Assembly (NCBI RefSeq): GCF_019464535.1
Contig: NZ_CP080507.1
Span: forward strand, 4,080,001 to 4,112,000
Direction of reading: 5' to 3'
Source of the DNA: Horticoccus luteus
Lineage (GTDB): Bacteria > Verrucomicrobiota > Verrucomicrobiia > Opitutales > Opitutaceae
Length of the DNA stretch: 32,000 bases
Each line of letters starts with the position of its first letter. Positions within the stretch are counted from its first letter, which is position 1. The notes under the pieces were generated by a model. That model did not search any database. It was not told where the DNA came from and saw only the letters and a list, made by a program, of their open reading frames with translations. Below are positions 4,889-32,000 of this stretch, in pieces. A program made the translations under genes and the position numbers.

Positions 4889-4924
4889 CGCGCTTCGGGC
4901 ATCGGCCGCCGTTGCGAACACGAA

Positions 4925-4949: not shown

Positions 4950-4998
4950 GCTTCGAAGGGTGCTGGGCGCCGTCGTCGACGCGCTCGCGAGGCAAGCG

Positions 4999-9465: not shown

Positions 9466-9471
9466 CACGAC

Positions 9472-10884: not shown

Positions 10885-10990
10885 AAAATAAACGCCGCAC
10901 CTTGCCGGCTTCGGCGCGGTGAAACAAGGGCGAAAGCGACCCGCGCGGGCGCGATTGCCTTTCCCCGGCGTTGCCTGTCAATCTCCGCGC

Positions 10991-11670: not shown

Positions 11671-13152
<1,482 letters not shown>

Positions 13153-14738: not shown

Positions 14739-15377
14739 ATGTCTCTCGCTGATTTGCGCAAGGATTACTCGCTCGCCGGCCTCGTGGAAAAGGATTTGGC
14801 GCGCGATCCCTTCCGCCAGTTCGACAAATGGTTTCAGGAGGCGCAAGGCGCCAAGATCCCCGAGCCCAACGCGATGGTCGTGGCCACCGCGACGCGCGAG
14901 GGCCGGCCTTCCACGCGCACCGTTCTCCTCAAAGGGATCGATGGTCGCGGCTTCGTTTTCTACACCAATTACGAAAGCCGCAAAGGCCGCGAAATCGAAG
15001 CCAACGCCCGCGTGTCGCTCCTCTTCCCATGGATCGCGATCGAGCGCCAGATCATCGTGGAGGGCACGGTGACCAAGGTTTCGCGCGAGGAAAGCGCCGC
15101 CTATTTTCACTCCCGCCCGCAAGCCAGCCAGATTGGCGCCTGGGCCTCGCAACAAAGCGCCGTGATCGGCAGCCGCGCGCTGCTCGAACAAGCCTTCAAA
15201 GCCGCCGAGAAAAAATACGCCGGCAGCGAAATCCCCATGCCGCCACAATGGGGCGGCTACCGTGTAAACCCCGAGACCGTGGAATTCTGGCAGGGCCGCC
15301 GCAGCCGCCTCCACGACCGCCTCCGCTATCGCCGCGAAGCCAACGGCGACTGGACGATCGAGCGCCTCTCCCCGTGA
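14739..15377 (+). CDS. pdxH: pyridoxamine 5-prime-phosphate oxidase
   Basis: ATG at 14739 ([10 protein letters not shown]). [54 protein letters not shown] and the C-terminal ERLSP are diagnostic for PdxH. Confidence 0.9.
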
Positions 15378-16915
15378 AGCGCCGCCCGGTGCGCCCGGCC
15401 GTCGATGCGGAATTGCTCGCCGCCGCCGTGCGCGGCCAGGCCGAAGGCGTTTTCATTGCCCGCCGCCGCCTCGGCCCGCGCGGTTTCACGATCCTCTACG
15501 CCAACGACAGCCTCGCGGCGATGGCCGGCCTCGCCCCCGGCGAACTCACCGGCCAGCCCCACGGCGTGCTCCACGCCGATGCCGCCGAACGCGAACGCTT
15601 GCGCACGTGGCTGGCCACTCTCGCGCCCGGTGCCTCGCTCAACGGCGAAGGTTACCTCGTGCGCCGCGGCGGCACGTCCTTCTACGCCGCGTGGACGTTC
15701 AGCCCCGTCTTCGACGACGCCGGCCGCGCGCAGCACATCGTGGCGATTTACCGCGACATCAGCGAAAAACGAAAATTGCAGGAAGCCCTCGCACGCGCCC
15801 AGCGCCTCGACGCCGTCGGCCGGCTCGCGGGCGGCGTCGCCCACGACTTCAACAACCTGATGTCGGTCATCAACGGCTACTGCGAAATCCTCAAGCCCCG
15901 CCTTGGCGCGTTTCCCCAAGCGTTGCACGACATCGAAGAGGTTCACAAAGCCGGCGAGAAAGCCGCCGCCCTTACCCGTCAGCTTCTCGCCTTCGGCCGC
16001 CGCCAGCCGATGCACCCGCAGACGCTCAGCCTCAACGACATCGTGCGCGAAAATGCCAGCCTGCTGGAACGCCTCCTCGGCGAGACCGGCCAGCTGGAGT
16101 TGCGCCTCGCCCCGGCCCCGCTCTACGTGCAGGCCGATCCGGTGCACCTGCAACAGGTGCTGCTCAACCTCACCATCAACGCGCGCGATGCCTTGCGCGA
16201 CAACGGCCGCGTCACCATCAGCACCGCCCCCCGCGAGATCGTGACCGCTCACCATCGCCGCTCCACCGATACTCCGCCCGGGCACTACGTCGTCCTCACC
16301 GTCGCCGACAACGGCACCGGCATGGATGCCCACACGCAGGAGCATTTGTTCGAACCGTTTTTCACCACCAAGCCCGAGGGCAAGGGCACGGGCCTCGGCC
16401 TGCCGATCGTCTATGGCATCGTGCAACAGAGCAACGGCTTCATCACCGTGCGCAGCGCCCCGCTCACCGGCGCCACGTTTGAAATCCTCCTCCCGGCCAC
16501 GACGGCACCGGCGATAACGCCTCCGCCCGCGTTGATCTCCCCGCCCGTGGTCACGCGGGGCAACGAAGCCATTCTCCTGATCGAGCACGACGAGGTGGTG
16601 CGCAAAATGTTCGCCGGCATCCTGACCGCGGACGGCTATCGCGTGACCGCGGCGGCGAGCCTCAAAACCGCCCTCGCGCATCCCGCGCGCTCCGCTCCGC
16701 CCTTCAAACTCCTCATCGCCCGCGTCTCCGGCGAAGCCGAGACGTTCGCGCGCCAGTTGCTCGCCCAACTCCCCGACCTGCGTGTGCTCCGCATGACCGA
16801 GTCGGACACCGTGCCAGCGTTGCGCTGGTGGCCGGAACAGCACCAGACCTCGCTCACGAAACCCTTTGCCTTGAACGAACTGCTCAAAGCCACGCGTCGC
16901 GTGCTCGACGCCTGA
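15374..16915 (+). CDS. PAS-domain sensor histidine kinase with C-terminal degenerate receiver-like domain
   Basis: ORF 14828..16915. I chose the GTG at 15374, which overlaps the pdxH stop (GTGA). It has a PAS-like N-terminus, an H-box ([17 protein letters not shown]), an N-box ([11 protein letters not shown]), G-boxes ([20 protein letters not shown]), and then a CheY-like region (ILLIEHDE ... LTKPF). Confidence 0.8.
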
Positions 16916-17704: not shown

Positions 17705-19960
17705 TCACAGAGTCGCCGGAGCGGGCGCCGGCGGAGTCGCCGCCGCCGGGCTATTCGCAGGGCCTGGTGCCGGCGCCGCCGCCGCCGGAGCCGGTGCCGC
17801 GACGCGCGGCCGAAACGGCCACGTGCGCAACGTCTTCGCCGTGAACAGACCTGCGAGCAACAGCACGACGAGCACGTAGAAAAATTTCCGCTTCCGCGCC
17901 GCCGCCTTGTTCACGTAAGGATCGTCCAGCGTGCGATGGGCGTTACCCGGCAGCGTCGCCACCTGCGTGAGCTGGCCACCGAAGGGAATATTGATCTTCA
18001 CCCGACCATTCACCGCCCAGCCGTTGGCATCGAGAATCGGCCCGAGATTGCGATGCCGCAGCTTGAGCGCGGCCATCAGCATCGACGGCCCGGAGATCAG
18101 CACGAAGATCCCCAAAATCACCAACGGCATCTGCCACGGTTCGAGCTTGAGAAAGCCCGACATCACCGCCGCCAGCGCGCTGCCGATCGCGCCCAACGCC
18201 AGACCGATCGCTGCGAAAATGCCGGCGAACTTGGCGATATCGAAGGGCGTGTTCTGCTTCGCGGGCGCACCCGCCAGCGGTGCTGACGCCGCCCCGACTC
18301 CCGCGCTCGCGCGCGCTGTCGCCTCCTTGTCCCAATCCGACGCAAATTTCGCCACCTGGTCGCCGATCATCTTGCCGATGCGTTTATAGGGCGTCCACAT
18401 CGCCTGCCGAATGCTGATCGGGTGTTCGACGATCTTCACGATGCGCGCGTCCCAGTCGCGCCCTTCGCGGTCGTAGAACACGCCATTGCGCCCCGGCATG
18501 AGATTGTCCGCATCGCCGCCGGTGATCGCGGCCGCGAGCGTGAATTTCTCCAGGCCTTTCCGGGCGCACTCGCAATACGCGAGATACGTCTGGCTCAAAT
18601 CCGCGAATTTCGCGTGCCGGTCCATGTCGCCGACGCGCACGCACAACTGGAAACTCCGCCCATCCAGATACAGCGTGCCCGCCTGAAAAATTGCCCAGCG
18701 GTCCGGCTCATAGAAATCGAAGAACGAAACAAAATTGTTCAGCAGCCGATAAAGGTCGCGATAGTAGCGCAGCAACCGGTCCAGATCGCTCACCGCCGCC
18801 ATCTCGGAGGCCAGCGCCGCATCCTTGTGCGAGAGCTCGGTCAACGTCGCTTGCAGCGGCCCCGTCACGAGCTCCCGCAGCCGCGGCAGCCCCAGCGATT
18901 CCACGACCGCTCCCAGTATCTTCGCGCGCCACGCCGCGTAGGGCGCCAGCCGGTCTTTGATCGTCTGCCATTCCGCCCGCGTGAGCTCCGTGCGCGGCCC
19001 CAGCAGCGGCGCCACCGCCTGCGTCGCCAGCGCGGCCAGGCGCGCCGTCCACGCCGGATTCACTTTGCCCGCCAGCGGCAACGCGCTGTCCGCCGCGACC
19101 GGCGCGATCGGCAGCTGCTCCACGGCGGAGGTCTCCGTGGCGAGATTCTTCGCCGCCATCGCGGCAAAGTCTTCCACCGCACCGTTCAACGCGCCCGCGG
19201 CGCGAGGATCGAACGCCGCCAGATTCGCCCGCACAAAATAATCGTCCACCTTCGCCGCCACCGCCGCATAAGCCTCGAACGCCGCGTCCGTCTGCGCGCC
19301 GATCGTCCGCACCGCCTCCGCCACGCCCGCCGCCTGCCACGCCACGTAGTCGCGCGCCGCGGCAAAAAACGCCTCCACCTTGTCCGCGTTGATGCCGACC
19401 TCTCCGCTGCGATCAGGCAGGCCGCCCACCGTCGCGATGATGTCGTTGATCGCTTGCGCCACCGCCGCGTCGCCCGCTGTCGCCGCCGTGATCACGCCAT
19501 CGCCGTTCAACCGCGTCGTCTTGAAAATGAGATCCTGATCAACGGTGTCCTTCGCCGAAATCTCCGTGGCACCCGGTCGCCCCACGCTCACGAGCACCTC
19601 ACGCGCCGCCGCGAGGAGCAACGCACCTTCGGGTGTCTGGTCGTTGATCGCCGCGAGCGGCATCAACGGCGCGGGATCGATGATCACGCCGATATCCTTC
19701 AAGTGCTGGTCGCACCAATGCACCGCCGCCAGCAGCTCCGGCACCCGGATGCGCCCGTCACCATCGAGGTCGATCATGGCGAGCGTGCGCTCGTCGAACT
19801 CCAACCCGCGTACCGGACAGCTTAACGCCGCCCACAACTTTTGATCGAGCTGCCCGAGCGCCTTCAGATCCTCCGCCGTGGAGATCCGCACCTGATCAAA
19901 TCCGCCGATGCGGAAAAATTTCCAGACGTGTTGCTGCGCGCCAAATCCGAATTTGATCAT
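17705..19960 (-). CDS. large hypothetical membrane protein with N-terminal EF-hand-like Ca-binding loop and C-terminal transmembrane helices
   Basis: 751-aa ORF with an ATG start and coding-like composition throughout. It has a canonical DxDxDGxIxxxE loop (DLDGDGRIRVPE), a long Ala-rich helical middle region, and three hydrophobic helices near the C-terminus (FAGIFAAIGLALGAIGSALAAVM, MPLVILGIFVLISGPSMLMAAL, FFYVLVVLLLAGLF). It ends in a Pro/Ala tail. I recognise no family. Confidence 0.6.
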   Translation of the reverse strand: MIKFGFGAQQHVWKFFRIGGFDQVRISTAEDLKALGQLDQKLWAALSCPVRGLEFDERTLAMIDLDGDGRIRVPELLAAVHWCDQHLKDIGVIIDPAPLMPLAAINDQTPEGALLLAAAREVLVSVGRPGATEISAKDTVDQDLIFKTTRLNGDGVITAATAGDAAVAQAINDIIATVGGLPDRSGEVGINADKVEAFFAAARDYVAWQAAGVAEAVRTIGAQTDAAFEAYAAVAAKVDDYFVRANLAAFDPRAAGALNGAVEDFAAMAAKNLATETSAVEQLPIAPVAADSALPLAGKVNPAWTARLAALATQAVAPLLGPRTELTRAEWQTIKDRLAPYAAWRAKILGAVVESLGLPRLRELVTGPLQATLTELSHKDAALASEMAAVSDLDRLLRYYRDLYRLLNNFVSFFDFYEPDRWAIFQAGTLYLDGRSFQLCVRVGDMDRHAKFADLSQTYLAYCECARKGLEKFTLAAAITGGDADNLMPGRNGVFYDREGRDWDARIVKIVEHPISIRQAMWTPYKRIGKMIGDQVAKFASDWDKEATARASAGVGAASAPLAGAPAKQNTPFDIAKFAGIFAAIGLALGAIGSALAAVMSGFLKLEPWQMPLVILGIFVLISGPSMLMAALKLRHRNLGPILDANGWAVNGRVKINIPFGGQLTQVATLPGNAHRTLDDPYVNKAAARKRKFFYVLVVLLLAGLFTAKTLRTWPFRPRVAAPAPAAAAPAPGPANSPAAATPPAPAPATL

Positions 19961-20075
19961 CCCCGCTTTGTGTCGGGCGAAGTCGCCCAGCGCAACCTGC
20001 GAGATGACGGCTTTAGGCCGACGCGTCGCTACGATTTTCGCTGTTCACAGCCGTGTAAAATGCCAGCGTCGCGCC

Positions 20076-21665
20076 ATGCCCCGCCCCCTCCACCTTCCAG
20101 CCTTAGTCGTTGCTCTGTCGCTTGGCCTCGCGCTGACCTCGTGTCAAAAAAAGGAGTCCTCTTCCGGCAACACGCCGGATGCCGCGGCCGCCGCTCGCGT
20201 GGCAACGCCTCAACCCGCCACCGTCGAAATTGTGCCGCCAAAGGAGCGCAGCCCGAGCTTCCTTGCGGTTCAAAAACAGCTTGAGCTCGGCGGCACGCTC
20301 TATGGCTACGTGGACGTCGACGGCGACGCGCTAAAAGTCGCCCGCAGCTTCAAGGACATCATGACGGAGGTGGCCGCCGCCCAGCCGAACCTGCGTTCCT
20401 TCGCGCAACACGACTACGCCGCGATCGCGACGAAGCTCGGCCTGGCCGACGTCAAAGCCATGGGTCTCAGTTCGGTGCCCGACGGCACCGGCTTCTTCCG
20501 CAACCGCCTGTTTCTCTATACGCCCGAAGGCCGTCACGGGTTGCTCGCCGGACTGGGCGGCAAGCCCGCGCCCTTCACCCACCTGAACCTCGCGCCGGCG
20601 AATACCGCCGTCTATTCTGAAGCGGATCTCGATATCGCGGCTGTTTACCAGACCGTGAAAGACGTTGTCGCCGAAGTCGCCGGCGAGCCCGCCAGCAACA
20701 AAATGGAAGCGGCCATCAAGCACGCCAGTGACTCCGCCAAACTCTCGCTGCTCGACCTCATCTACGGCCTGAAGGGCCACAGTGCCATGGTTCTCTGCAT
20801 CGATTCGGTGAAGACCATGCAGATGCCTCCGCCAGCGAGCATCACCCTGCCGGCGTTCTCCCTGCTCGTCTGCGTCGACGGCGTGGGGCCGGTCGTTGAA
20901 AGCGCGCTTGCGCAGGAAGCCGGTTTCCAACGGACCGACGAAGGCGCGTTTCATGTTTATACCAGCGCCAAGCCGGTTGCCGGTTTCGGCTGGACACCCG
21001 TCTTTGTCGTCGATGGCCGCGATCTGTACTTCGCCACCTCCCGCGCGTTTTACGACGAGTGCCGCGCCCAAAAAACCGGGCTGGCGCAACAACCGGAATT
21101 TCAACAGGCCCTCGACCACGTCGGTCACGAGGGCAACGGGCTGTCCTACGTCACGCCGCAATTCTTTGACCACCTGAAGCGCATCGAAAAACTCAACCCG
21201 ACGCTGCCGCCGCCGCTCAAGCAACTGATCACGATGATCATCTCCCGGCTGCCGACGCCTGACCAACCTCTGGTCGGCATTCGCACGAACCTGCCCGACG
21301 GCATCCTCGTGCGTTCCTATATGAACCGCTCGTTCAAACAGGATCTCGCCATGGTTTCTGTCTATAACCCCGTCACGATCGGCCTGATGAGCGCGATGGC
21401 CATTCCTGCATTTCAGAAAGTCCGCACGTCTTCGCAACAAAAGGCGGTGCTCAACAACCTTCGCCAGCTCTCCGCGGCCGCTGACCAATATTATTTGGAA
21501 AACGGGGTCTCCACGACCACGTATGACGAAATCGTCGGCGAAAAGCGTTATATCAAAAAGATCATTCCGGTGATGGGCGAAAATTATCGCGAAATCCGCC
21601 TCGAAGCCGGCCTGCCTCTCCGCATCCGCCTCCCCGACGGCCGCATGGTCGAATACGGGCCCTAA
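20076..21665 (+). CDS. lipoprotein of unknown function with embedded C-terminal pseudopilin-like module
   Basis: ORF 19908..21665. I chose the ATG at 20076, which gives a lipoprotein signal peptide with a lipobox (MPRPLHLPALVVALSLGLALTSC). The last ~104 aa (VTIGLMSAMAIPAFQKVRTSSQQKAVLNNLRQLSAAADQYYLENG...) resemble PVC-type pseudopilins. Confidence 0.7.
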   Translation: MPRPLHLPALVVALSLGLALTSCQKKESSSGNTPDAAAAARVATPQPATVEIVPPKERSPSFLAVQKQLELGGTLYGYVDVDGDALKVARSFKDIMTEVAAAQPNLRSFAQHDYAAIATKLGLADVKAMGLSSVPDGTGFFRNRLFLYTPEGRHGLLAGLGGKPAPFTHLNLAPANTAVYSEADLDIAAVYQTVKDVVAEVAGEPASNKMEAAIKHASDSAKLSLLDLIYGLKGHSAMVLCIDSVKTMQMPPPASITLPAFSLLVCVDGVGPVVESALAQEAGFQRTDEGAFHVYTSAKPVAGFGWTPVFVVDGRDLYFATSRAFYDECRAQKTGLAQQPEFQQALDHVGHEGNGLSYVTPQFFDHLKRIEKLNPTLPPPLKQLITMIISRLPTPDQPLVGIRTNLPDGILVRSYMNRSFKQDLAMVSVYNPVTIGLMSAMAIPAFQKVRTSSQQKAVLNNLRQLSAAADQYYLENGVSTTTYDEIVGEKRYIKKIIPVMGENYREIRLEAGLPLRIRLPDGRMVEYGP

Positions 21666-21868
21666 AACCGCCCGTCGCCCCCGTCTCCGGCGCCGCCCGT
21701 CTTGTATCCCGCGGGGACGCCACTGCGGGCGGTGAGTGGCGCGCTCAAGATTTTCCGGCGCGCGGCGACGCCGGGAAGCGAAGCGCACAGGCTGGCGGTC
21801 GTCATCCGCTGACCTTCGACCTGGTCTGCGTCGTTCGCGCCGTGGACCGGCAAAATCACCCGCGTCCG

Positions 21869-21891
21869 AACCCGCCGCGGCGGGTTGTTTT
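21869..21891 (+). terminator. terminator-like or attenuator-like hairpin in the long spacer upstream of the 979-aa gene
   Basis: AACCCGCCGCGGCGGGTT is self-complementary (about 6-7 bp stem) and is followed by GTTTT. It lies 200 nt after the lipoprotein stop codon and 88 nt before the next start codon. Confidence 0.3.
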
Positions 21892-21978
21892 CGCCCAACG
21901 TCGCAGCCCGTCGATGCCTGGCTGGCGAGCGGAATCATTGGAATTGAAGAGCGAAAAGCGCCCGACCAGCTTCGCGCG

Positions 21979-24918
21979 ATGGTCTCTTCCGACGACGCCA
22001 AAGCTCCTCATCCTGCCTCGCAGACGCCCTCGAGCGGCGCGCTTCCGGCGCTCGATCTCTCGGCCGCCGCGATCGCGCAGCGCTATCGGGCCCGCCGCGA
22101 GTTCATCCTGAGCGAAGCCGTCGCCGCCGTGGTGCCGGGCGATCCCACGCGGGGGAGCAAATTCGATATCGCCGCGTGTTTCCACCGGGGCGAAAAGCGC
22201 GAGGCCGCCCTGGCCCGGCTCGAAGTTCTCGACCGTGCGACGCCCTCCGCGAACATGTTTTGGGCGTATCCCACGGTGACCGTAATGCTGGCCGGCCAGC
22301 AGGCGCTCGATGCGAAGAGTCGCGACCGCATGACCGAATTGTGGCGCACGTATTGGCCGAGCCGGGGCGACACCGAGAACCACTGGCTGCTCAGCTATGC
22401 GAGTTATTATCTCGTGGCGCAAACCCACCCCGACGCGGGACCGGAGTGTTGGTTCAACGGCCGGTCTTCCGCCGAGAATCTGGCCGAAGCCAAAAACTAT
22501 ATAGAACACTGGATCGGCGTCACGACCAGCTACGGGCAGGGAGAATACGATTCTCCCAACTACATCGAGGAATACGCCGTCGGGCTCGCGCTGCTTGCGG
22601 GCTGGGCGCAGGATAAGGCGTTCCGCGACCGTGCGAAGCAGATGCTCGACTATATTTTCTATGATTATGCGGCGGAGACGCTGGACGGGCTTTATGGCGG
22701 GGCGCACAGTCGCGTGTATCCGCGCCATATCATGGCTCCGGGCCGCACCGCGGCGGCCGCCCTCGGCTGGTTGTTGTTTGGCCTGGGCGAGTATGAGCCC
22801 AGCGAGCGACAGGTGACGCGCCATCAACTGCGCGACGAACTGCCGGAGCGCGGCGCCAAATTGATCGCCCTCAGCGGCTACGAGCCGCCGCCGATCTTGG
22901 AACGCATCGCCCGCGAGCGCGCGCAGCCTTATGTCGAACGGGAGCGCAAGCGCACCCGCTGGCGGATGCGGCATGCGGGGCCGGATTCCTTCGTGATCGG
23001 CGACAAGCGCACCGTGCCGGTGTATAAATACAGCTACGTTGACCCTGACTTCATCCTGGGTTCGTCCCAAGGCGGCCTGCTGCAACCGATCCAGCAGCAA
23101 ACGTGGGGACTGATCTGGCGCACGGAAAACGCCGTGATGCGGTGTCCTTCGTTTTTCGGCGTGCAGCCGTATGCTTCGTCGGTTGAGGGCAGCATGTATT
23201 TCCCCGTCGATCCCGCCGTGGTCACCGATTTGATCACGCGCTCGAAGGCGGACTACGACTCACCAGACAAACTCGCCAGCGGTTCACCGTATGAGCAGGT
23301 CGTGCAAAGCGGCCGGGCGCTCATCGCGCTGCAGGACATTCCCGCCTCGGCACTCTTTCACCACATCACGCTTTTTTTCTCCCGTGATTTGGAGCACACC
23401 GTCGAGGATTCGTCCGGTTGGATCTTCACGCAAGGCGGCCCCGTCTACCTTGCCTGCCGACCCTTCGTTCAAGGCCAATGGCGTCCGAACGACTGGACCG
23501 GTTTTCTCAGCGGAGGCGCTGGCGGTATTCTCGTCAGCGGCGATTTCGAGGAGTGGGGCGTAGGGCACCGCTGCTACGTCAGCGAGGCGCATCAAAACGG
23601 CTACATCGTGCAAGTCGCCGCCACACGCGACTTCTCGTCGTTCGCGGCGTTTCAAGACGCCGTGCGCGGGCTGGCGCTGACCTTTTCGCTGTCGCCGACG
23701 CCGGCGGCCACGTTCACCGCTTTGGACGGCACGAAGCTCCAGGTCCGCTATGGCGACACGCCGCACGTGAACGGCGCGCCAGTGGACTACGCCAACTGGC
23801 CGCTCTTCGACAGCCCCTTCGGCCACGCCGCGGTCGGCAGTCGACAGCTCTCTCTCCAGCACGGCGGTGAGACCCAGTTGCTCGATTTTCAAAATCGTCC
23901 CCGTGAGTCTGTCGTCCCGGCTTTGCCACCGGTCCCCGCCGACTCCGCTGCGTCCACCCGGCCGGCGTTCTACGCGGCGTTGACCATGACGAAGGCGCAG
24001 CAGAACACCGCGACGCCGTCCGACTCGGGCTTGTATGAGCGGTTGCCCTCGGGCGAATGGGTGCTCACCGGACCGCGCATTCTCGGCGTGGCGACGCTGG
24101 CGCTCCATCCCACGAACCCAGCCATTCAGTTGATCGCCTCAGCCGACGGCGTGGTCCGCACGGTCGATCACGGCCGGACTTGGCGCAAGACCACCGGTTG
24201 GGAGGTCGCCGACGTGAGGGCCATCGAATTCGACGCGGGCAATCCCGATCTCGTCTACGCTGCCACCATGTGGAGCCCCTTGCGCTCGGTGGATGCCGGA
24301 CAGACTTGGACGTGCACGCAACGCGGGTTGGACCGACTCTATGGCCAGACGTTGATCGCGGACCGACAACAACCAGGACGCGTGTTAATGGGTATGGAGG
24401 AAGGGCTCTACGCCTCGGTCGACGCCGCGCTGACGTGGCAGCGGCTCAACTTTCCCACCGTCACGATTACGCGTCTGCGGCAAAGTCCTGTGCAACCGCA
24501 ACGGTTGCTCGCCGCCACGCTCGTCCAGGGCGCCTGGCTTTCCACTGATGCAGGGGAGACGTGGAAACCCACGGACCCCGCCACGGCGACCGCGCAACTC
24601 TACGCCGCCGCACTGGATTCGCACGATCCCGCCTTGATGGCGATCGGCGGCTGGGGAGCCGGTGTGCGAGTCTCCGGCGACGCGGGCCAAACCTGGGTGG
24701 ACCGCAGCGCAGGTCTGCCTAACCTGAATGTGTTCGTCCTCGCGTTCGATCCGCAGCATCCCGCCCGTTTGTGGGCCTCGACGTTTGAGGAAGGCTCGTT
24801 CTACAGCGATGACCGCGGGCAGACTTGGCAGAATGGCGGACTCTACGGCGCGTATGGCGCGGATTTCGTCTTCGGCCGCGTCGCGACAACTCCGGCGAGC
24901 GCCCATTCGTCCTCGTAA
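21979..24918 (+). CDS. large two-part protein: N-terminal alpha-helical domain of unrecognised family plus C-terminal Asp-box (BNR/sialidase-like) beta-propeller
   Basis: ORF 21736..24918. I chose the ATG at 21979 because the upstream in-frame part is Arg-rich junk. Six Asp-boxes are visible: [35 protein letters not shown] and DDRGQTW. Confidence 0.7.
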
Positions 24919-25006
24919 ACGCAGGTCCGGTGCGACCGATCTTTCCAACGGTTTTTTCTTAAAAGCCGTCTGGCCACCTCACGCGCCACGCTTACCGTTT
25001 CGTCCC

Positions 25007-25372
25007 ATGTTTGAAATCTCGGGCACCATCAAAAAAATCTTCGACGAGCAGACCTTCGGCAGCGGCTTCAACAAGCGCGAGTTCGTGGTGACTGTTCCCG
25101 ACGGACGCTTTCCGCAGGACCTCAAATTCGAAACCGTGAAGGACAAAGTCGCCCTCGTGGGCGCGCTCAAGGTCGGCGAAAAAGTGAAAGTCTCCTTCGA
25201 CATCCGCGGTCGCGAGTGGAAGGAAAACTATTACGTCAACTTGAACGCGTGGAAGATCGAGTCGCTGGACACGGGCGGCCGGGGCCCGGCGTCAACAGAC
25301 GACGGTCCGCCATTGAGTGAACCCGAGCCGGGAGCCGGCAGCATGGATCTTGATGAAGATCCGCCGTTTTGA
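25007..25372 (+). CDS. DUF3127-type OB-fold protein with SSB-like disordered linker and acidic C-terminal tip
   Basis: ORF 24728..25372. I chose the ATG at 25007. The core, [28 protein letters not shown]...[26 protein letters not shown], matches my memory of the DUF3127 family. The C-terminus is Gly/Pro-rich and ends in MDLDEDPPF. Confidence 0.75.
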
Positions 25373-25485: not shown

Positions 25486-25602
25486 CTAACGGTCACCTAT
25501 CACGGTCGTAATATCGTTTTCCAGGAGCGCGGAGAGCGTCTGACTGATGGCGAGGGCGGTTTGCGAGGTGATGCATATACTACAAAGCCAGACTCCTTTC
25601 AT
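25486..25602 (-). CDS. candidate small ORF (38 aa; 56 aa if started at the ATG at 25656) in a lower-GC spacer
   Basis: The minus strand reads AAGGACACACGGAGGCACG-ATG, with a GGAGG Shine-Dalgarno 4 nt before the ATG at 25602. The product is MKGVWLCSICITSQTALAISQTLSALLENDITTVIGDR, ending at the TAG at 25486..25488. It is below the ORF-track length cutoff. Coding status is unproven. Confidence 0.2.
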   Translation of the reverse strand: MKGVWLCSICITSQTALAISQTLSALLENDITTVIGDR

Positions 25603-25686
25603 CGTGCCTCCGTGTGTCCTTTCTCGCAGGCGGATTTTCGGGTGGCGATTGCTCATGATCACGTCAGCGGGGTCGCCTTATCTTTC

Positions 25687-27108
25687 TCATCCAGCGATGT
25701 TCCGCAGCGTAATCACGCACTCCAGATGCCGCGTCTGCGGGAAGAGATCGAATGGCTGCACGGCCGTGAGCATGTAGCCAGCCGCGAGAAATTGTTTCAG
25801 ATCCCGCATCTGCGTCGCCGGATCGCACGAAACGTAAACCACCGCGCGCGGCCCAAAGGCGAAAAGCTGCTGCAGAAACGCTTCGTCGCAGCCCTTCCGC
25901 GGCGGGTCGATGATCACCGCGGTCTCCGTCGCCGGGAAATCCAAACCCGCAAAAATCGCCGCTGCGTCCGCCGCCAGAAAATTGGCGTTGGTGATATGGT
26001 TCGCCGCCGCGTTCTTGCGCGCAAAATCGATACTCGTCGCGCTCAATTCCACGCCGGCCACGCGCTCGAAGGCCGGCGCCGCCGCCAGCGCGAACAGCCC
26101 GCTCCCGCAATACGCATCCACCAGAAACCGCGCGCCGGTTGCTGCGGCCTGCGCACTCACATACGCCGCGAAGGCCGGCAGAATAAACGGGTTGTTCTGA
26201 AAGAAATCGCGCGCGAGAAACTGCAGCCGCAGCGTGCGCGTTCCCCCGCGCTTGTCTTCGCCCTCGCGGCCCGGTCCGACCGGAAGTTCGATCGTCTCCG
26301 TGATCACCGCTTCGTAATTCGTCGTCACCGCGCCGCTCGCTTCGCGCAAGAGCAGCGTCGCCCCGCGCGTGAAGGCGCCCTCCGTCGCCCGCGCGCGCAC
26401 CTCCGCGCGCACCTCCGTCAGGCGCGCGTTGATCGCGGGCGTGGCAATCGGGCATTGCGGCACGTCCACGATCTCGAACCGCGTTCCTTGTCGCAAAAAA
26501 CCGATTGGCAACGCCGGTGCGTTCGTCGTCGCCGGGGCCGTCGCCGTCCCTCCGTTCGCCGCCCCGCTATCCGGCACGGCTCCCGGCACGGTCGTTTCCT
26601 GCTTCGCCGCGGTGGTCGCAGGCTGCGTCATTGCCGCCCGCGGCGCCGCGAAGTGCGGCGTAATTTTCGAACGGTAACCAAACTCGCGCGGCGAGCCGAT
26701 CACGGCCGCCACGGGAAACGTCACCCCCACCATGTGCTGCAACAACTCCTCCACTTGCCGGCGCTTCCACGCGAGCTGTTCGGCGTAGCTGAGATGCTGA
26801 TATTGGCACCCGCCGCAGCGCCCGAACAGCGGACACGACGCCGCGATCCGGTGCGGCGAAGGTGTGAGCACCGTCACAAGATCCGCCTCCGAGAAATTCT
26901 TGTGATTGCGAAACACCCGCGCGCGCACGCGTTCGCCCGGCAGCGTAAACGGCACCATCACCACCCACAGGGTTTCGGCGGCGCCGTCCGTCGCGCGCAG
27001 CGGCATGCGCCCGAGGCCCGCGCCGAGATTCGTCAGCGTCGTGATCTCCAGTTCGATCTCCGCGTGATACGCGAAGGGCTGGTCGTTGAACCGTTTCTTT
27101 TTCCCCAC
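25687..27108 (-). CDS. RNA (uracil-5)-methyltransferase, RumA/TrmA (RlmD-like) family with TRAM domain and 4Fe-4S ligands
   Basis: This is the 3-prime part of the 877-aa ORF 25687..28320. I chose the GTG at 27108 (MGKKKRFNDQPFAYHAEIELEITTLTNLGAGLGR, a TRAM domain), because the upstream part is antisense to the TrmH-like gene. Also present are the cluster cysteines (CPLFGRCGGCQYQH plus VPQCPI), the SAM motif (VDAYCGSGLFAL) and the catalytic segment (VVYVSCDPAT). Confidence 0.8.
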   Translation of the reverse strand: MGKKKRFNDQPFAYHAEIELEITTLTNLGAGLGRMPLRATDGAAETLWVVMVPFTLPGERVRARVFRNHKNFSEADLVTVLTPSPHRIAASCPLFGRCGGCQYQHLSYAEQLAWKRRQVEELLQHMVGVTFPVAAVIGSPREFGYRSKITPHFAAPRAAMTQPATTAAKQETTVPGAVPDSGAANGGTATAPATTNAPALPIGFLRQGTRFEIVDVPQCPIATPAINARLTEVRAEVRARATEGAFTRGATLLLREASGAVTTNYEAVITETIELPVGPGREGEDKRGGTRTLRLQFLARDFFQNNPFILPAFAAYVSAQAAATGARFLVDAYCGSGLFALAAAPAFERVAGVELSATSIDFARKNAAANHITNANFLAADAAAIFAGLDFPATETAVIIDPPRKGCDEAFLQQLFAFGPRAVVYVSCDPATQMRDLKQFLAAGYMLTAVQPFDLFPQTRHLECVITLRNIAG

Positions 27109-27192
27109 GCCCTGAGGAAACACACGCCGCCCGCAAAACGAAGCCGGATTTTTCGCCGTGCCCTCCGCCGGCCGCGCGTTCAAACCAAGCGC

Positions 27193-27999
27193 ATGCCCGT
27201 CGAGAAGATCACCAGCCTCCAAAACCCGCGCGTGAAACAGCTCGTAAAGCTGCGCGACCGGCGCCCGCGCGATGAGGCCGGCGTGTTTCTCGTCGAAGGC
27301 TATCGGCAGATTCGCCGCGCGCTGGAGAAAAACATCGCGCTCACTGAACTCTACTTCTCCCCCGATTGGTTTCTCGGCGAAAATGAACTCGCGCTCATCG
27401 CGCAAGCCGAAGCTGCCGGCGCCCAAACCTTCGAGCTCGCCAAGGACGCGTTCGCCAAAGTCGCGTATCGTGAACGCCCCGACGGCCTCCTCGCCGTCGC
27501 TCCGCAATGGCGCCGCACCCTCAACGACGTGCCCTCCGGCCCCGCGCCCTTTCTTCTCGTCGTGGAAGCCATCGAGAAACCGGGCAACCTCGGCACCATT
27601 CTGCGCAGCGCCGACGCCGCCGGGTGCGACGCCGTGATCGTGTGCGATCCAGTCACCGATGTTTTCAACCCCAACGTTGTGCGCGCCTCGACCGGCGTGC
27701 TTTTTTCCGTGCCCGTGATCATCGCCGACAGTGAGGCCGTGCACGCGTGGCTGCGCGCCCGGGGCATTCGCGCGGTCGCCACCACGCCTGCCGCCACCGC
27801 ACTTTACTCTGACACCGATCTGCGCGGCCCGCTCGCGATCGTCATGGGCAGCGAGCAATACGGACTCAGCGAATTCTGGCTGCAACAAGCCGATGCCACC
27901 GTGCGTATCCCCATGGCCGGCCAGGCCGATTCGCTCAACGTCGCCATGGCGACAATTATCACGCTGTTCGAAGCCGTGCGCCAACGCGCCGGGCGCTGA
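27193..27999 (+). CDS. TrmH/SpoU family RNA 2-prime-O-methyltransferase (RlmB-like)
   Basis: ATG at 27193 inside ORF 25561..27999 (MPVEKITSLQNPRVKQLVKL). SPOUT motifs seen: EKPGNLGTILRSADAAG, AIVMGSEQYGLS and IPMAGQADSLNVAMA. Confidence 0.8.
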   Translation: MPVEKITSLQNPRVKQLVKLRDRRPRDEAGVFLVEGYRQIRRALEKNIALTELYFSPDWFLGENELALIAQAEAAGAQTFELAKDAFAKVAYRERPDGLLAVAPQWRRTLNDVPSGPAPFLLVVEAIEKPGNLGTILRSADAAGCDAVIVCDPVTDVFNPNVVRASTGVLFSVPVIIADSEAVHAWLRARGIRAVATTPAATALYSDTDLRGPLAIVMGSEQYGLSEFWLQQADATVRIPMAGQADSLNVAMATIITLFEAVRQRAGR

Positions 28000-28093
28000 G
28001 AGGCATCTCCCGCCCGCCGAACCGCGGCCGCTGTGGTCATGCGACGCCGCGCACCGTAAGCGCCTGCCGCTGGCCGTGCGCGCGAAGCGCGCG

Positions 28094-30085
28094 CTACACC
28101 TGATCGACGTTTTCGCCGGCGATGAGGTTTTCTGCGAGCTGCTGATCCTGCGCGGCCACCATCCGGCGTTGCACATACGCCTGCTTCTGCGCGCGCTTTT
28201 GCGCCAGATGCAGCGCCCACGCGGCGACTTTGCGCGAACCCGGCGGATGTCGCCGCAGCACGGCGAGCACCAGCCGCTGCACCGGCGGCGGCAGAAAGCG
28301 CTCCACCAACTCGTCCTCAAACGACGCGAACGTGTGCGTGCTGCCGGGATCGCCTTGACGGCCCGCGCGCCCGCGCAACTGGCGGTCGATGCGCCCCGAC
28401 TCGTGCAGCTCCGTTAAGATCACGTGCAACCCGCCGTGACCGGCGACTCCGTGGCCCAGGCGAATATCGGTGCCGCGCCCCGCCATGTTGGTCGCGATGG
28501 TGATGGAGTTGGGCTCGCCCGCGAGACTCACGATCGCGGCCTCCTCCTTGTGCCGCACCGCATTGAGAATCGAGAACGTGAAGCCGCGCGCCGTGAGCAA
28601 ATGGCCCAGATGCTCGCTTGCCGCAACGCTCCGCGTGCCGACGAGAATCGGCTGCCCCTGCGCGTGCAATCGCTCGATTTCGGCGACGATCGCCTTCCAT
28701 TTTTCCGCCGCCGTCACAAAAAACTCTTCGCGCCATTCGGCGCGCACGCACGGCCGATGCGGCGGGATGACCACGAGCGGCAGTTCATACATGCGCCAGA
28801 ATTCGTTGCTCGCTTCCGCCCCCGTGCCGGTGATGCCCGAGAGCAGCCGGAACAACCGGAAAAACCGCTGGAAACTCAGCCGTGCGAGCGACTCCGCGGG
28901 ATTCGTGACCGACACACCTTCCTTCGCCTGCACGGCCTGGTGCAGACCCAGCCGCCACGTGCGACCCGGCATCAAACGACCGGTGAATTCATCGACGATG
29001 ATCACCTGCCCGTCGACCACGACGTATTGCTTGTCGCGCAGAAAAAAGTGCCGCGCATGCAGCGCCTGCGTGACGAGCGTCTCCATCCACGCCGGATGGG
29101 AAAAAACGCCCTCCCCGTGCTCGCGGCACCACGCCGCCACCTTGCCGTGCGCGAGTTCGAGCAGCTTCACTTCCTTGAACTGCACGTTGAGCTCGTAGTC
29201 CTCCCCGACGAGCAGGCTCGCCGCCAGCCGATCCGCCAGCCGCGACGCGTGCAGCAAATCCGCGTTCTCCTGCTCCCGGCTGATGATCAACGGCGTCACC
29301 GCTTCGTCGATCATCTGGTTGTCCGCTTCGTCGACGATCGCCGAATACAACCCACGCTGCACCAGCGGCTGCGTGCCCTGCGGCAGTTTCAGAAAACGCG
29401 CCACCGTGCGCCGTCCCGGATCGGTCAACGGCCCGAGCGCCAGCCGGTCGCGCAGAAAATCCGCCACCAGTTCCTTGCTCGTCGTATAGACGACGCCGGC
29501 GAGATAGTTCGACCGTCGATCCTCCTGCGACATCGGCGCCGAGATGTGCCCGGCGCGCAAACCGCAGGCGCGGTAAAGCGGCGCCAGTTCATTCGCGTCG
29601 CGCTCCGCCAGGTAGTCGTTGGCGGTGATCACGTGGCACGGCAGCCCGAGCCAGCCGAGCGGCACCGCCGCGAGGGAAATCGTCAGCGTTTTGCCCTCGC
29701 CCGTCGCCATCTCCACCAGCCGCCCATGCGCAATGCCGAGCGCGCCCATGATTTGCACCCGATAAGGCCGCAAACCGATTTCGCGGTGCGCCGTCTCCAC
29801 GACCGCGGGCAGCACCTCCTCGAAGATCGAGATCCAGTCGCGGCCGCGCCGCCGCACTTTCGCCCGGCATGCTCGCAGCAAATCCCGCAACTCCAGTTCG
29901 TGCAGCGTCCGCAATGCCTCCGCGGCCGTCTCGATGCGGCCGGCCGACTCCCACAGCTCGCGTTGAAAGCGGCGCCGGCTTTTCCACGCGCCATGCGCGC
30001 GATGCACGAGCGAGTCGAGCCCCTCCGGCAGTTTTTCCAGGCGGCGCGTTTCCGTGCGCCGCACTTCTTCCATCGGCAGCGGCAT
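28094..30085 (-). CDS. truncated SecA-like ATPase (SecA2-type paralog lacking helical-wing and C-terminal domains)
   Basis: 663 aa. Motifs seen: Walker A MATGEGKTL (nt 29687..29710), DEAD-like VDEADNQMIDEAVTPLIIS, FQRFFRLFRLLSGITGTG, TNMAGRGTDI and RGRAGRQGDPGST. The protein ends shortly after the start of the scaffold helix (LHLAQKRAQKQAYVQRR). The ATG lies 3 nt after the upstream stop codon. Confidence 0.8.
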   Translation of the reverse strand: MPLPMEEVRRTETRRLEKLPEGLDSLVHRAHGAWKSRRRFQRELWESAGRIETAAEALRTLHELELRDLLRACRAKVRRRGRDWISIFEEVLPAVVETAHREIGLRPYRVQIMGALGIAHGRLVEMATGEGKTLTISLAAVPLGWLGLPCHVITANDYLAERDANELAPLYRACGLRAGHISAPMSQEDRRSNYLAGVVYTTSKELVADFLRDRLALGPLTDPGRRTVARFLKLPQGTQPLVQRGLYSAIVDEADNQMIDEAVTPLIISREQENADLLHASRLADRLAASLLVGEDYELNVQFKEVKLLELAHGKVAAWCREHGEGVFSHPAWMETLVTQALHARHFFLRDKQYVVVDGQVIIVDEFTGRLMPGRTWRLGLHQAVQAKEGVSVTNPAESLARLSFQRFFRLFRLLSGITGTGAEASNEFWRMYELPLVVIPPHRPCVRAEWREEFFVTAAEKWKAIVAEIERLHAQGQPILVGTRSVAASEHLGHLLTARGFTFSILNAVRHKEEAAIVSLAGEPNSITIATNMAGRGTDIRLGHGVAGHGGLHVILTELHESGRIDRQLRGRAGRQGDPGSTHTFASFEDELVERFLPPPVQRLVLAVLRRHPPGSRKVAAWALHLAQKRAQKQAYVQRRMVAAQDQQLAENLIAGENVDQV

Positions 30086-30088
30086 CGG

Positions 30089-32000
30089 CTAAAGCTGGTA
30101 GTGAGATTGCAACAACTGCCGGAAGTCCCGGCCCCATTGCACGAGCAGCGGCGACCACGGCAGATCGAAGCGGATCACGCCCGTTCGCCCGTGCCACACC
30201 ACGTGGCCCTCTTTCGCCGCCGCCCCGGTCGGCGCCGGCACGCGCGCCACGACGAGAAAGAAAGGTTCGGCCGACCGCAGGCCGCGCGGATCGTCCATGC
30301 GCACGCGCACCGCGCCACCCGTCGCCCAGCCCAACGCCGGCGAAGGCAGCACGTCCTGCCGGCCCGGCACCACGCGCCAGTCGGTCACGCGCAAATCCCG
30401 CCCGGAAGAGCCTTGGAAACGCACCTCCGCGCCATGCAGGTGTCCGCCGAACAAATCGCCCGCGAAGTCCTGCGGCACGACCGCGTAAAAATCCCACAAC
30501 GGCCCGTCGCCGACGAGCTCGCCCACCATCGTCCCGCGCGCCATCCACGTGCCCAGCATGTCATCGCTGTGGGCGGAAACCCATTCGCCCGTCACCGGCG
30601 CGCGAAAATCCAGTTGCTCCTGATCGTGCTCGAGCTGCGCCAGCAACATCTCCACCGATTCGCGCCGCTTCTTCATCGGTGCAATCCCCGCAGCCAATTC
30701 CGTCAGCATCTGCCGCTCCCGCGCGGCCGCTTGTTCCAGATTTGCGCGCGCCGACGCGATCGACAGCGCCAGTTCAGGGTTCTGCAACGTGACCAACGGC
30801 GCGCCTTGCTGTACGCTGGTTCCGCTGGGCACCGCAAAGGATTCCGCCCAGCCGTCGACCGGCGTGAGCACTGTCATCGAGCCCGCGGCCCGCACCACCC
30901 CCGCTGCACGAAAATGCCGCGGAAACGGCACCACCCCCAACAAAATCACAATGACCGCGAGGGCGCCGAACGTCACACCCCACGCCCGTTTGCGCACCCG
31001 CTGGATGCGCGGCTCCCGCGTCAGGTAACGCAGCCCGCCGACGACCGGCATCACAAACGCACCGATGAACGTCACCACACCCGCGAGCAGCCCGATGCCG
31101 AAGTAGCGATCCGCCACGAGCAGGATGATCGAGACCGTGATGAGAATGCGATAAACCCAGCTCGCCACGCCGTAAATCGACAGCCACACCGCTTCCTTCC
31201 GGCTGCGCGCCGGGCTCTCGGTGAATTTGCCGCCAAACGCATATTTCTCGATCATGTGCAGCCACTGGCGCGCCGCCCGCGGCTGCAAATTCGGCGAGTC
31301 GGTCAGATCCGCGAGAATATAATAGCCGTCAAAGCGCAGCAGCGGATTGATATTGAAAATCACCGTGGAGACCGACGCCACGATCATGACGTTATACGCG
31401 AGACTGTTGAGCAGCCCGGCGCCGGTGTTGGCCCAGACGAGCGCCGCGATGCTCGCGAAAAACAACTCCGGGATCATGCCCGCGCAGCCCACCATCACGC
31501 GTTTCCACCGCTCGCGAAAGGCCCAGGCGGCCGTCGCGTCCACATACGGAATCGGCGTGAACACCAGCAGGGTCACACCCATCGCGTGCACCTCGCCCCC
31601 GAATTTTTTCACCGCAAACGCGTGACCGAATTCGTGCACCAGCTTCGCCATCGCGAAGCCGAGATACAACAGGAGGAGGTTGCCCGGTTCGAGAATGCTC
31701 TGCGTCTGGTCCTGCGCCTGATCCCAGTGGTTGATGACCGCCGACAGCCCCAGCCCCACCATCACGATCCACAGCAACCCCGCGCCCGGCGTGCAAAGCC
31801 ATTTCACCACCGGCCACAAGCGCCGCAGAATCGGCTCCGGATCGAGCAGGCGGATACGCAAAAAGAAGATGCCGAAAATCTGTGACTTGATCTCCTGCTG
31901 CACCCGCTTCTGGTGCCGTTGAAACAATTGCGCCGTGTCCGCCGGCACATCCGACGCGATCAGGTTGGATTGATACAACTGCGCCAGCATCGAGACGATC
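30089..32000 (-). CDS. peptidase M50 (site-2-protease-like) fused to a HlyD-type membrane-fusion/adaptor domain; 5-prime end beyond the window
   Basis: The reading frame stays open to the window edge. The HExxH motif is seen as LVHEFGHAF (nt 31622..31636). The second M50 motif is NINPLLRFDGYY. There are multiple transmembrane helices. The C-terminal part has a barrel-sandwich / coiled-coil pattern (VLTPVDGWAE...VQQGAPLVTLQNPEL...coiled coil...FRAPVTGEWV), typical of HlyD/MFP proteins. Confidence 0.75.
   Translation of the reverse strand, partial: IVSMLAQLYQSNLIASDVPADTAQLFQRHQKRVQQEIKSQIFGIFFLRIRLLDPEPILRRLWPVVKWLCTPGAGLLWIVMVGLGLSAVINHWDQAQDQTQSILEPGNLLLLYLGFAMAKLVHEFGHAFAVKKFGGEVHAMGVTLLVFTPIPYVDATAAWAFRERWKRVMVGCAGMIPELFFASIAALVWANTGAGLLNSLAYNVMIVASVSTVIFNINPLLRFDGYYILADLTDSPNLQPRAARQWLHMIEKYAFGGKFTESPARSRKEAVWLSIYGVASWVYRILITVSIILLVADRYFGIGLLAGVVTFIGAFVMPVVGGLRYLTREPRIQRVRKRAWGVTFGALAVIVILLGVVPFPRHFRAAGVVRAAGSMTVLTPVDGWAESFAVPSGTSVQQGAPLVTLQNPELALSIASARANLEQAAARERQMLTELAAGIAPMKKRRESVEMLLAQLEHDQEQLDFRAPVTGEWVSAHSDDMLGTWMARGTMVGELVGDGPLWDFYAVVPQDFAGDLFGGHLHGAEVRFQGSSGRDLRVTDWRVVPGRQDVLPSPALGWATGGAVRVRMDDPRGLRSAEPFFLVVARVPAPTGAAAKEGHVVWHGRTGVIRFDLPWSPLLVQWGRDFRQLLQSHYQL

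Follow-up and report, generated by a model that had tools for sequence, protein, structure and literature searches.

Why should a bacterium keep a SecA protein that lacks the wing and most of the scaffold, with its gene three nucleotides behind that of a membrane protease fused to a periplasmic adaptor, and what might such a pair transport? The question is raised by one end of a 32,000-nucleotide stretch of the Horticoccus luteus genome (NCBI RefSeq assembly GCF_019464535.1, contig NZ_CP080507.1, positions 4,080,001 to 4,112,000 of the forward strand; the whole stretch is hereafter called the window), where the gene for a 663-residue SecA-like ATPase follows one that encodes an M50 metalloprotease and a HlyD-like adaptor in a single polypeptide. 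Our analysis supports this pair as a real, conserved and dedicated module, distinct from housekeeping SecA; the reading of an initial annotation is thereby supported in part, in its idea of dedicated export, and not in its claim of novelty or in the place and kind of cargo that it expected. With a probability of about 55%, the module is read here as a type-I-secretion-like, envelope-spanning exporter in which the SecA-like ATPase would drive giant proteins and the M50 domain would remove their leader.

Gene order provides the first line of evidence. One genome per species was scanned with an alignment of the fusion protein, yielding 80 loci, mostly from Verrucomicrobiota, with the remainder from Desulfobacterota, Thermodesulfovibrionia, Terriglobia, Planctomycetota, Proteobacteria and Spirochaetia. 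Among the loci with at least 2.1 kb of downstream sequence, 62 of 65 carry a short SecA gene directly 3' of the fusion gene, and they span six or more phyla (Verrucomicrobiota, Desulfobacterota, Nitrospirota, Acidobacteriota, Planctomycetota, Proteobacteria and Spirochaetota). The adjacency that the initial annotation had noticed from this sequence alone is thus conserved in independently retrieved loci. The fusion family itself is large: at E<=1e-30 an exhaustive HMMER search returned no fewer than 4,185 cluster representatives (50% identity), and a length of ~710-740 aa prevails among the 150 best of them.

Unsupervised clustering of all open reading frames (ORFs) of at least 50 aa from 82 loci recovered the fusion protein in 82, a GAF-adaptor protein in 74, the SecA-like protein in 73, a small adaptor in 67 and an outer-membrane efflux protein (OEP) in 66; no other equally conserved gene family emerged from it, and there is no ATP-binding cassette (ABC) transporter among these five conserved genes. 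In most relatives, the genes are ordered as a TolC-like outer-membrane factor, the small adaptor, the GAF plus adaptor protein, the fusion of a probable RiPP recognition element (RRE; RiPP, a peptide that is made on the ribosome and modified after translation) with an M50 protease and an adaptor, and finally the short SecA-like ATPase, with the TolC-like and small-adaptor genes either lying within the operon or being divergently transcribed. Actomonas aquatica (L003, CP139781) illustrates this arrangement, with OEP, small adaptor (242 aa), GAF-adaptor, fusion and SecA-like genes separated inside the operon by gaps of 36-70 nt. Judged by the gene order in relatives, the window holds the last two genes of the conserved operon.

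The initial annotation had placed a cargo or precursor gene upstream of the pair, outside the window. On two contigs that reach further (L085 and L001), the gene immediately upstream instead encodes a 610-aa protein that combines a cytoplasmic GAF domain with a periplasmic HlyD-type adaptor. The adjoining gene is thus this GAF-adaptor and not a precursor. An OEP homologue lies ~5 kb upstream in L001, a 95% relative. No small adaptor was seen in the examined part of L001.

Some loci vary the layout. In L001, a MacB-like cluster (1101-5722, minus strand) separates the GAF-adaptor operon from the divergent OEP gene. It comprises an ABC ATPase (212 aa), an FtsX-like permease (373 aa), one HlyD-like (388 aa) and one OEP-like protein (437 aa), both of them weak matches, and an ORF of 139 aa; it is present in L001 and a few relatives, its HlyD-like gene occurring in 7 loci. 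Three loci from Verrucomicrobiales/Limisphaerales (L064, L073 and L077) have the fusion gene with no SecA-like gene in the 5.8-10 kb downstream, and L064 is also without the GAF-adaptor gene.

What do the two genes of the window encode? The fusion gene is resolved into the following parts, with the supporting evidence in brackets.

30089..32000, minus strand: 3' part (1,912 nt) of the RRE-M50-adaptor fusion gene, covering codons 90-725 of 725 and the stop codon (P0121, L085)
31952..31999, minus strand: last ~16 residues of the probable N-terminal PqqD-like (RRE) domain (AlphaFold2 (AF2) model; Pfam on relatives)
30932..31864, minus strand: polytopic membrane region of the M50 domain, ~residues 135-445 (AF2 helices, hydropathy peaks)
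31622..31636, minus strand: HEFGH, zinc-binding/catalytic motif of the M50 domain, residues 211-215 (H211, E212 and H215 invariant in 75 homologues)
31325..31348, minus strand: NPLLRFDG, third zinc ligand, residues 307-314 (N307, P308, L309, L310, F312, D313 and G314 invariant in 75 homologues)
30092..30931, minus strand: periplasmic adaptor (membrane-fusion-protein) domain, residues 446-725 (AF2, Foldseek)

The 5' end of this gene lies beyond the window edge at 32000, and since the full-length protein P0121 (725 aa) is 99.8% identical over 636 aa, the window misses just the first 89 codons. The proposal that an M50 protease with HEFGH and NPLLRFDG motifs and a HlyD-like domain share one polypeptide is borne out by the motifs, AF2 and Foldseek. 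In the AF2 model, built for full-length P0121 with 75 homologues (mean predicted local distance difference test score (pLDDT) 82.3), the membrane region contains helices at residues 144-179, 194-221, 253-305 and 356-445, the last membrane helix being 425-445. The adaptor domain that follows is predicted to consist of lipoyl, alpha-hairpin (497-550) and beta-barrel subdomains, with pLDDT mostly 84-96. Foldseek aligned this ~280-residue domain to MacA, MexA, AcrA, ZneB and CusB with a probability of 1.00, E-values down to 5e-13 and 260-300 aligned columns; the HlyD-like call is therefore right at the fold level, and the modelled C-terminal half has a true periplasmic-adaptor fold. Profile searches proposed in the initial annotation found both expected families, each weakly: Peptidase_M50 at 3.4e-5 (PF02163, 23.7-25.4 bits, below the gathering threshold of 27.2) and HlyD_D23 at 0.004, with the adaptor falling below Pfam and TIGR cut-offs at the sequence level. 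By these sequence criteria the protein can be classed as a divergent member of Peptidase M50.

By sequence, the fusion protein comes closest in its N-terminal two thirds to RiPP leader-processing intramembrane proteases, with all matches below equivalog cut-offs. The NCBIfam model daptide_HExxH (NF041824) matches the window protein at 8e-49, and matches reach 1e-51 over profile positions 2-368 with 167-176 bits against a cut-off of 300, while YydH/LiaK (NF058609) matches at 4e-9 with 35-36 bits against 225. Residues ~20-105 of P0121 are modelled as three to four strands followed by three helices. When 33 fusion-family members from many phyla were scanned separately, 22 matched Pfam PqqD (PF05402; best 3.8e-5) and three matched PaaA-like_N, another RRE, with other families appearing in at most two members each. 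The N-terminal domain is probably a PqqD-like peptide-recognition element. Searches of PDB sequences with the fusion protein and with a profile of its N-terminal domain gave no match.

The second gene and its junction with the first are listed below.

30086..30088, minus strand: 3-nt spacer CCG between the fusion stop and the SecA-like start (sequence reading)
28094..30085, minus strand: short SecA-like ATPase gene, 663 aa (ORF list, Pfam, NCBIfam, PDB alignment, AF2, Foldseek)
29687..29710, minus strand: Walker A motif MATGEGKT of nucleotide-binding domain 1 (NBD1) (T128, G129, E130, G131 and K132 invariant in 73 homologues)
29318..29335, minus strand: DEAD-type Walker B motif VDEADN (D252, E253 and D255 invariant in 73 homologues)
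28931..29236, minus strand: preprotein cross-linking domain (PPXD), residues 284-385 (SecA_PP_bind of Pfam at 3.1e-23, covering 9-109 of the 110 profile positions)
28121..28237, minus strand: C-terminal helix 617-655, the first part of the SecA scaffold helix (AF2, B. subtilis SecA alignment)

The protein comprises NBD1, the PPXD, NBD2 and ~40 residues of the scaffold helix, and is devoid of the helical wing, the two-helix finger, the C-terminal linker, the zinc finger and the rest of the scaffold. Pfam recognizes SecA_DEAD (1.6e-79), SecA_PP_bind (3.1e-23) and P-loop_SecA (2.6e-54), with no match to SecA_SW in the 663 residues, an outcome that the initial annotation had anticipated; lacking SecA_SW, the protein also lacks the two-helix finger and wing that are used on SecY. 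Among PDB sequences, the alignment covers residues 54-603 of the 841 of B. subtilis SecA at 36% identity (E 2e-116) and ends inside the first long scaffold helix. The AF2 model (pLDDT 84.7, predicted template-modelling (TM) score 0.81) ends in a long helix at residues 617-655, 8 residues beyond which the chain stops, and its best Foldseek superpositions are on SecY-engaged SecA (5eul/6itc; TM 0.77-0.78). The TNMAGRGTD motif, like the two Walker motifs, is invariant across the 73 homologues. The SecA homologue with both nucleotide-binding domains and a PPXD that was originally described is thus confirmed by Pfam, AF2, Foldseek and its motifs, as are the missing wing, linker and zinc finger; its end point needs correction, as ~40 residues of the scaffold helix are kept and not merely the start of that helix. 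With a median length of 664 aa among 63 complete homologous ORFs, the shortened C-terminus is, on sequence comparison, a trait of the whole SecA-like family.

Annotation of these short proteins in public resources is inconsistent because no dedicated family model exists: NCBI lists some of them (P0100 and P0103 are examples of such naming) under 'prepilin peptidase' or 'DEAD/DEAH box helicase' and leaves many others as 'hypothetical protein', and the name at JGI is 'preprotein translocase subunit SecA'.

At the junction, the TAG stop of the fusion gene (30089-30091), the CCG spacer (30086-30088) and the ATG of the SecA-like gene (30083-30085) read exactly as first reported. Among 72 related loci with a measurable gap, counted to the first ATG, about half have a distance between -4 and +10 nt, and the 3-nt spacing makes translational coupling of the two genes plausible. 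Both genes are genuine. The independent contig L085, 99.5% identical to the window in nucleotides over their overlap, supplies the 5' end of the fusion gene; P0001 matches the SecA-like protein in length and at 95% identity; L001/L002 show 95% amino acid identity with identical length; and more than 100 homologues of each protein share its length and architecture. Only 94 nt separate the SecA-like stop from the next gene, which is convergent, so that a wing domain cannot hide downstream.

27160..27999, plus strand: convergent SpoU/TrmH-type RNA methyltransferase gene, the 3' operon boundary (ORF end; start inferred from the 279-aa L001 product)

L001 carries the same 279-aa SpoU_methylase gene at the equivalent place, and no intrinsic terminator was detected in the 94-nt convergent gap. 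By synteny with L001, positions 25687-27999 hold a convergent pair of RNA methyltransferase genes, one for a RumA-type tRNA/rRNA U5-methyltransferase (minus) and one of SpoU/TrmH type (plus); the long ORFs listed at 25687..28320 (minus) and 25561..27999 (plus) are over-extended high-GC shadows.

If the module exports something, what is the cargo? The initial annotation suggested a search for small precursor ORFs upstream. In relatives the best candidates are instead giant proteins, most of them encoded downstream of the SecA-like gene. Many loci have a very large ORF that begins 120-900 nt 3' of the SecA-like stop on the same strand and usually exceeds the 10-kb flank; the giant proteins range from 1,300 to >18,900 aa, and the Actomonas product is annotated at 18,972 aa. 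None of the giant ORFs beside the module has a hydrophobic or Sec signal peptide. They carry the motif F-x-[LIV]-E-x-L-E-x-R-x-L-L-S 8-25 residues from the start, which corresponds to NCBIfam LEPR-XLL (NF012209; match up to 7e-8). The loci, 1.4 Mb in all, contain 43 copies of this motif where shuffled sequence would be expected to give 0.8, and every copy in the loci heads a large ORF. Pfam gave no domain for the initial 3,272 aa of the giant from Actomonas or for 2,630 aa of another. Giants directly downstream of the short SecA gene occur in L003:12190-22007 (Actomonas aquatica CP139781) and in ~30 other loci, such as L071:14277-22133 and L084:10639-16852. In a Rariglobus/IMCC26134-like clade, a ~1,380-aa protein with NHL-repeat, He_PIG and MBG domains and a signal-peptide-like start is inserted between the SecA-like and LEPR-XLL genes (L015:14274-18356, with the same position in L019-L021, L023 and L024).

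The linkage was examined in both directions. The forward direction took in the 59 loci of the scan in which a SecA-like gene is followed by 1 kb or more of sequence, with flanks of up to 10 kb on each side; 44 contain a LEPR-XLL ORF (42 by strict regular expression and two by a hidden Markov model (HMM) of the motif), and in 32 of the 44 it lies directly downstream of the SecA-like gene on the same strand. The linkage is strong in this direction. In the reverse direction, metagenomic DNA was fetched by the back-translated motif alone, giving at least 120 LEPR-XLL loci (L086-L205); genes of this kind abound in metagenomes from soil, sediment and freshwater. Among the matches listed, 47 distinct LEPR-XLL genes had 2.5 kb or more of upstream sequence; a short SecA gene lies immediately upstream of 10 of them, and two more have other module genes there. 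Because most of the metagenomic LEPR-XLL genes among these matches have no module nearby, the linkage is not one-to-one. A strict one-to-one relationship was accordingly rejected, and the imperfect linkage may reflect a single system that serves many scattered cargoes, or a looser relation. In the literature searched, no paper was found that links LEPR-XLL proteins to the short-SecA module, and searches for the LEPR motif in various spellings came back empty.

What is observed are the domains present, the conserved catalytic motifs, the order of the genes, the spread across phyla and the LEPR-XLL linkage; from these we infer assembly into one machine, the direction of transport, leader cleavage and the identity of the cargo. 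In the proposed exporter, the cytoplasmic PqqD-like domain of the fusion protein would bind an N-terminal leader of the cargo, and the SecA-like motor would clamp the unfolded chain and push it through the inner membrane at the expense of ATP. Without wing and two-helix finger the motor would be unable to use SecY, and the inner-membrane passage may be formed or gated by the polytopic M50 domain, whose active site would cut off the leader. The adaptor domains and the TolC-like channel would then take the chain across the periplasm and outer membrane, and the GAF domain may gate the system. The likely cargo in relatives consists of giant, Sec-signal-less proteins that start with LEPR-XLL. A more far-reaching version of this proposal, to which we would give somewhat less than an even chance, is that the module represents a distinct class of secretion system with a SecA-type motor and LEPR-XLL giants as dedicated substrates, in which the ~24-residue motif is the leader bound by the PqqD-like domain and cut by the M50 domain, and export proceeds from N- to C-terminus. 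Such a system would also account for the exit of signal-less giants such as the symbiosis proteins of Chlorobium chlorochromatii.

Published work offers partial precedents. The M50 protease EpeP is thought to both cleave and export its own peptide (PMC10885120), which provides a precedent for an M50 role in export. Wing-less SecA domains have been found inside giant Omnitrophota proteins and proposed to aid their export (bioRxiv 10.1101/2023.11.21.568195). In Chlorobium chlorochromatii, LEPRxLL giants are described as proteins that 'lack known signals', and their co-expression cluster contains a horizontally acquired secA, which may or may not be of the short type (bioRxiv 10.64898/2026.03.19.712371).

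Several points weigh against the exporter. The steps of export, cleavage and assembly rest on sequence, gene context and predicted structures. We know of no M50 protease that forms a protein-conducting channel, and classical type I substrates exit C-terminus first, whereas recognition at the N-terminus is implied here. The PqqD score in the window's own lineage is weak (E=0.13, 13 bits versus 23.4). No LEPR-XLL gene was found in the flanks of 15 of the 59 modules, and among the matches listed, no nearby module accompanies about three quarters of the metagenomic LEPR-XLL genes for which 2.5 kb or more of upstream sequence exists. The window itself contains no cargo gene: the downstream neighbour of the SecA-like gene is the convergent SpoU methyltransferase, regular-expression and motif-HMM searches of the 32-kb window and L001 gave no LEPR-XLL motif, and no LEPR-XLL gene lies within 28 kb downstream or 10 kb upstream in the window and L001. 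In M. extorquens, module genes other than the GAF gene are barely expressed in exponential phase (PMC4452313).

The most serious rival, though in our judgement an unlikely one, is a RiPP-type system for maturation and export of a small peptide, in which the RRE binds a precursor, the M50 domain cuts its leader, the adaptors and TolC-like channel expel the product, and the SecA-like protein serves as an accessory ATPase. The best family matches of the fusion protein are indeed RiPP intramembrane proteases, its N-terminal domain is probably PqqD/RRE-like, the activity attributed to EpeP (PMC10885120) also favours this explanation, and the window's lineage has no giant gene near the module. The family scores, however, remain far below the equivalog cut-offs (167-176 versus 300; 35 versus 225). 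Only the five module genes and the large LEPR-XLL ORFs recur in the 82 loci, with no conserved modifying enzyme or precursor-sized family among ORFs of at least 50 aa. The tight spacing of the A. aquatica operon also speaks against a small peptide, since gaps of 36-70 nt leave no room for a precursor gene, and a SecA motor with a PPXD suits long unfolded chains.

Rather less probable is a role in signalling or quality control, in which ligand sensing falls to the GAF domain, a membrane or cytoplasmic protein is unfolded by the SecA-like ATPase and passed to the site-2-type M50 protease for regulated intramembrane proteolysis, and the adaptors do no more than anchor the complex to the envelope. 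M50/site-2 proteases classically work in regulated proteolysis, and a GAF sensor domain is encoded in the operon; the GAF gene is moreover the only one clearly expressed in M. extorquens (PMC4452313). Against these points, three adaptor-fold proteins recur together with a TolC-like factor (the GAF-adaptor, small adaptor and OEP genes are each found in 66-74 of the 82 loci), a signature that belongs to a trans-envelope conduit and not to a signalling protease. Sigma/anti-sigma genes are not conserved in the clustered neighbourhoods, and the linkage to signal-less giants fits export better.

Could the 663-aa protein simply be the organism's own SecA, or a SecA2 that works with SecYEG, its adjacency to the fusion gene being incidental? 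Its homology to SecA is clear, as the B. subtilis alignment demonstrates, and no canonical secA was found among the fetched loci, with the analysis covering 32 kb of this organism. It nevertheless falls below the cut-off of every SecA and SecA2 model: the canonical models TIGR00963 / NF009538 give 524-525 bits against 800-814, and the SecA2 models TIGR03714, TIGR04221, TIGR04397 and NF012136 give 379-462 bits against 725-1,100. SecA_SW, and hence finger and wing, are absent, the truncated length is kept in 63 ORFs, and 62 of 65 loci from different phyla retain the adjacency; the genomes with such proteins studied by Kamneva et al. are reported to hold a canonical SecA as well, the two not being sister sequences (PMC4452313). 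Sub-cut-off scores, the missing SecA_SW, conserved length and conserved adjacency together essentially exclude both the housekeeping and the SecA2 interpretations. An assembly or frameshift artefact, which would have created a false fusion or a false truncation, had nothing found in its favour and is ruled out for practical purposes, as L085 (99.5% nt) and L001/L002 (95% aa, identical length) reproduce both genes, more than 100 homologues have the same length and architecture, and the downstream gap is 94 nt.

How proteins of 5,000-40,000 residues are exported without a recognizable signal is an open question, for which the module offers a concrete candidate machine and a candidate signal. If the exporter proposed here is real, it would be the first tripartite exporter energized by a SecA-type ATPase and would exemplify how a secretion apparatus can take an intramembrane M50 protease into its service. 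The value of the window itself is more modest, as it adds one further cargo-less copy of a module first noted in 2015.

The remainder of the window contains genes of other kinds. A 1,060-aa ORF at 21736-24918 (plus) has BNR/Asp-box and Sortilin-Vps10-type beta-propeller repeats in its C-terminal third, and its N-terminal ~800 residues are without a Pfam match. A DUF3127 protein (2e-26) is encoded at 24728-25372 (plus); because the match covers ORF residues 96-178, its real start is probably an internal Met near 25000. Further genes, all of common housekeeping or regulatory types, encode a CinA/MoCF protein (1729-3060, minus), a radical SAM protein (7415-8575, minus), a glutamate dehydrogenase (11737-13152, plus) and a PAS histidine kinase (14828-16915, plus). 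Pfam gave no match for the long ORFs 3002-4921 (minus), 9445-11307 (plus), 17705-19960 (minus) and 19908-21665 (plus).

How, finally, does the module compare with known systems? Its tripartite logic is that of type I secretion and peptidase-containing ABC transporters (PCATs), as in HlyB-HlyD-TolC, where an energized inner-membrane part is joined to a membrane-fusion protein and a TolC-like channel; membrane fusion proteins and a TolC-family factor are present in the loci of relatives, the OEP gene lying outside the window. Further similarities with these systems are a leader-cleaving protease built into the inner-membrane component and very large adhesin-like cargo that is often encoded alongside. 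Unlike type I systems, the module operon has no ABC transporter, its ATPase being a SecA-type DEAD motor with a polypeptide clamp; its protease is an intramembrane M50 zinc enzyme, whereas that of PCATs is a C39 cysteine peptidase. One covalent fusion unites protease and adaptor, the adaptors are of two or three different kinds, and the candidate signal is N-terminal (LEPR-XLL) rather than C-terminal or a GG leader.

The short SecA shares NBD1, the PPXD and NBD2 with intact ATPase motifs with canonical SecA and Gram-positive SecA2, and it superposes on SecY-bound SecA with the TM of 0.77-0.78 given above. It differs from both in that NBD1 carries 19 inserted residues and the helical N-terminus is longer, and from SecA2 in that its gene is unlinked to secY2/asp genes. 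In common with EpeP/YydH and daptide HExxH proteases, the fusion protein has HExxH and NPxxxxDG motifs in a polytopic membrane domain and an N-terminal domain that falls within the daptide model. In contrast to RiPP M50 proteases, it is fused to a ~280-aa periplasmic adaptor and partnered with a SecA-like ATPase and a TolC-like factor, and, unlike in RiPP systems, conserved RiPP-modifying enzymes and small precursors were not found nearby among ORFs of at least 50 aa in the 82 loci. The giant proteins of Omnitrophota and Actinobacteria (West-Roberts et al. 2023) resemble the module in having SecA_DEAD and preprotein-binding domains without scaffold and wing, tied to giant proteins; there the SecA domains are inside the giant polypeptide, whereas here they form a separate 663-aa protein encoded in an operon.

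The closest counterpart is a module described by Kamneva, Poudel & Ward in 2015 (PLoS One 10:e0129066, PMC4452313), so that the combination, which the initial annotation took not to have been functionally described, is not new, although the earlier description is a bioinformatic one. These authors reported 'secondary SecA_DEAD' proteins, with SecA_DEAD and PP_bind and without SecA_SW, in Verrucomicrobia, Planctomycetes, Proteobacteria, Nitrospirae and Chlorobi, together with M50/HlyD, GAF/HlyD, small HlyD and TolC-like partners; the conserved locus encodes weak Peptidase_M50 plus HlyD, GAF plus HlyD and HlyD/biotin-lipoyl proteins and sometimes an OEP. They proposed that the SecA ATPase replaces an ABC transporter and that the M50 membrane protein is the pore. 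Their study was purely computational and named no substrate. A literature search for SecA, M50, HlyD and GAF together returned the 2015 paper alone, and no later experimental study of the module was found in the literature searched. The window matches that module in a SecA_DEAD protein without SecA_SW next to a weak M50 plus HlyD protein; the GAF plus HlyD gene is immediately upstream, outside the window, as seen in L085 and L001, and small adaptor and OEP occur in 66-67 of 82 related loci, the OEP also being seen in L001 and the small adaptor not in the part examined. The module of the window therefore differs in nothing essential from that of 2015 and is a further copy of a known, uncharacterized kind. 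What is new relative to that paper is the probable PqqD-like N-terminal domain, the structural support for the adaptor fold, the wider spread (Acidobacteriota, Desulfobacterota and Spirochaetota) and the link to LEPR-XLL proteins.

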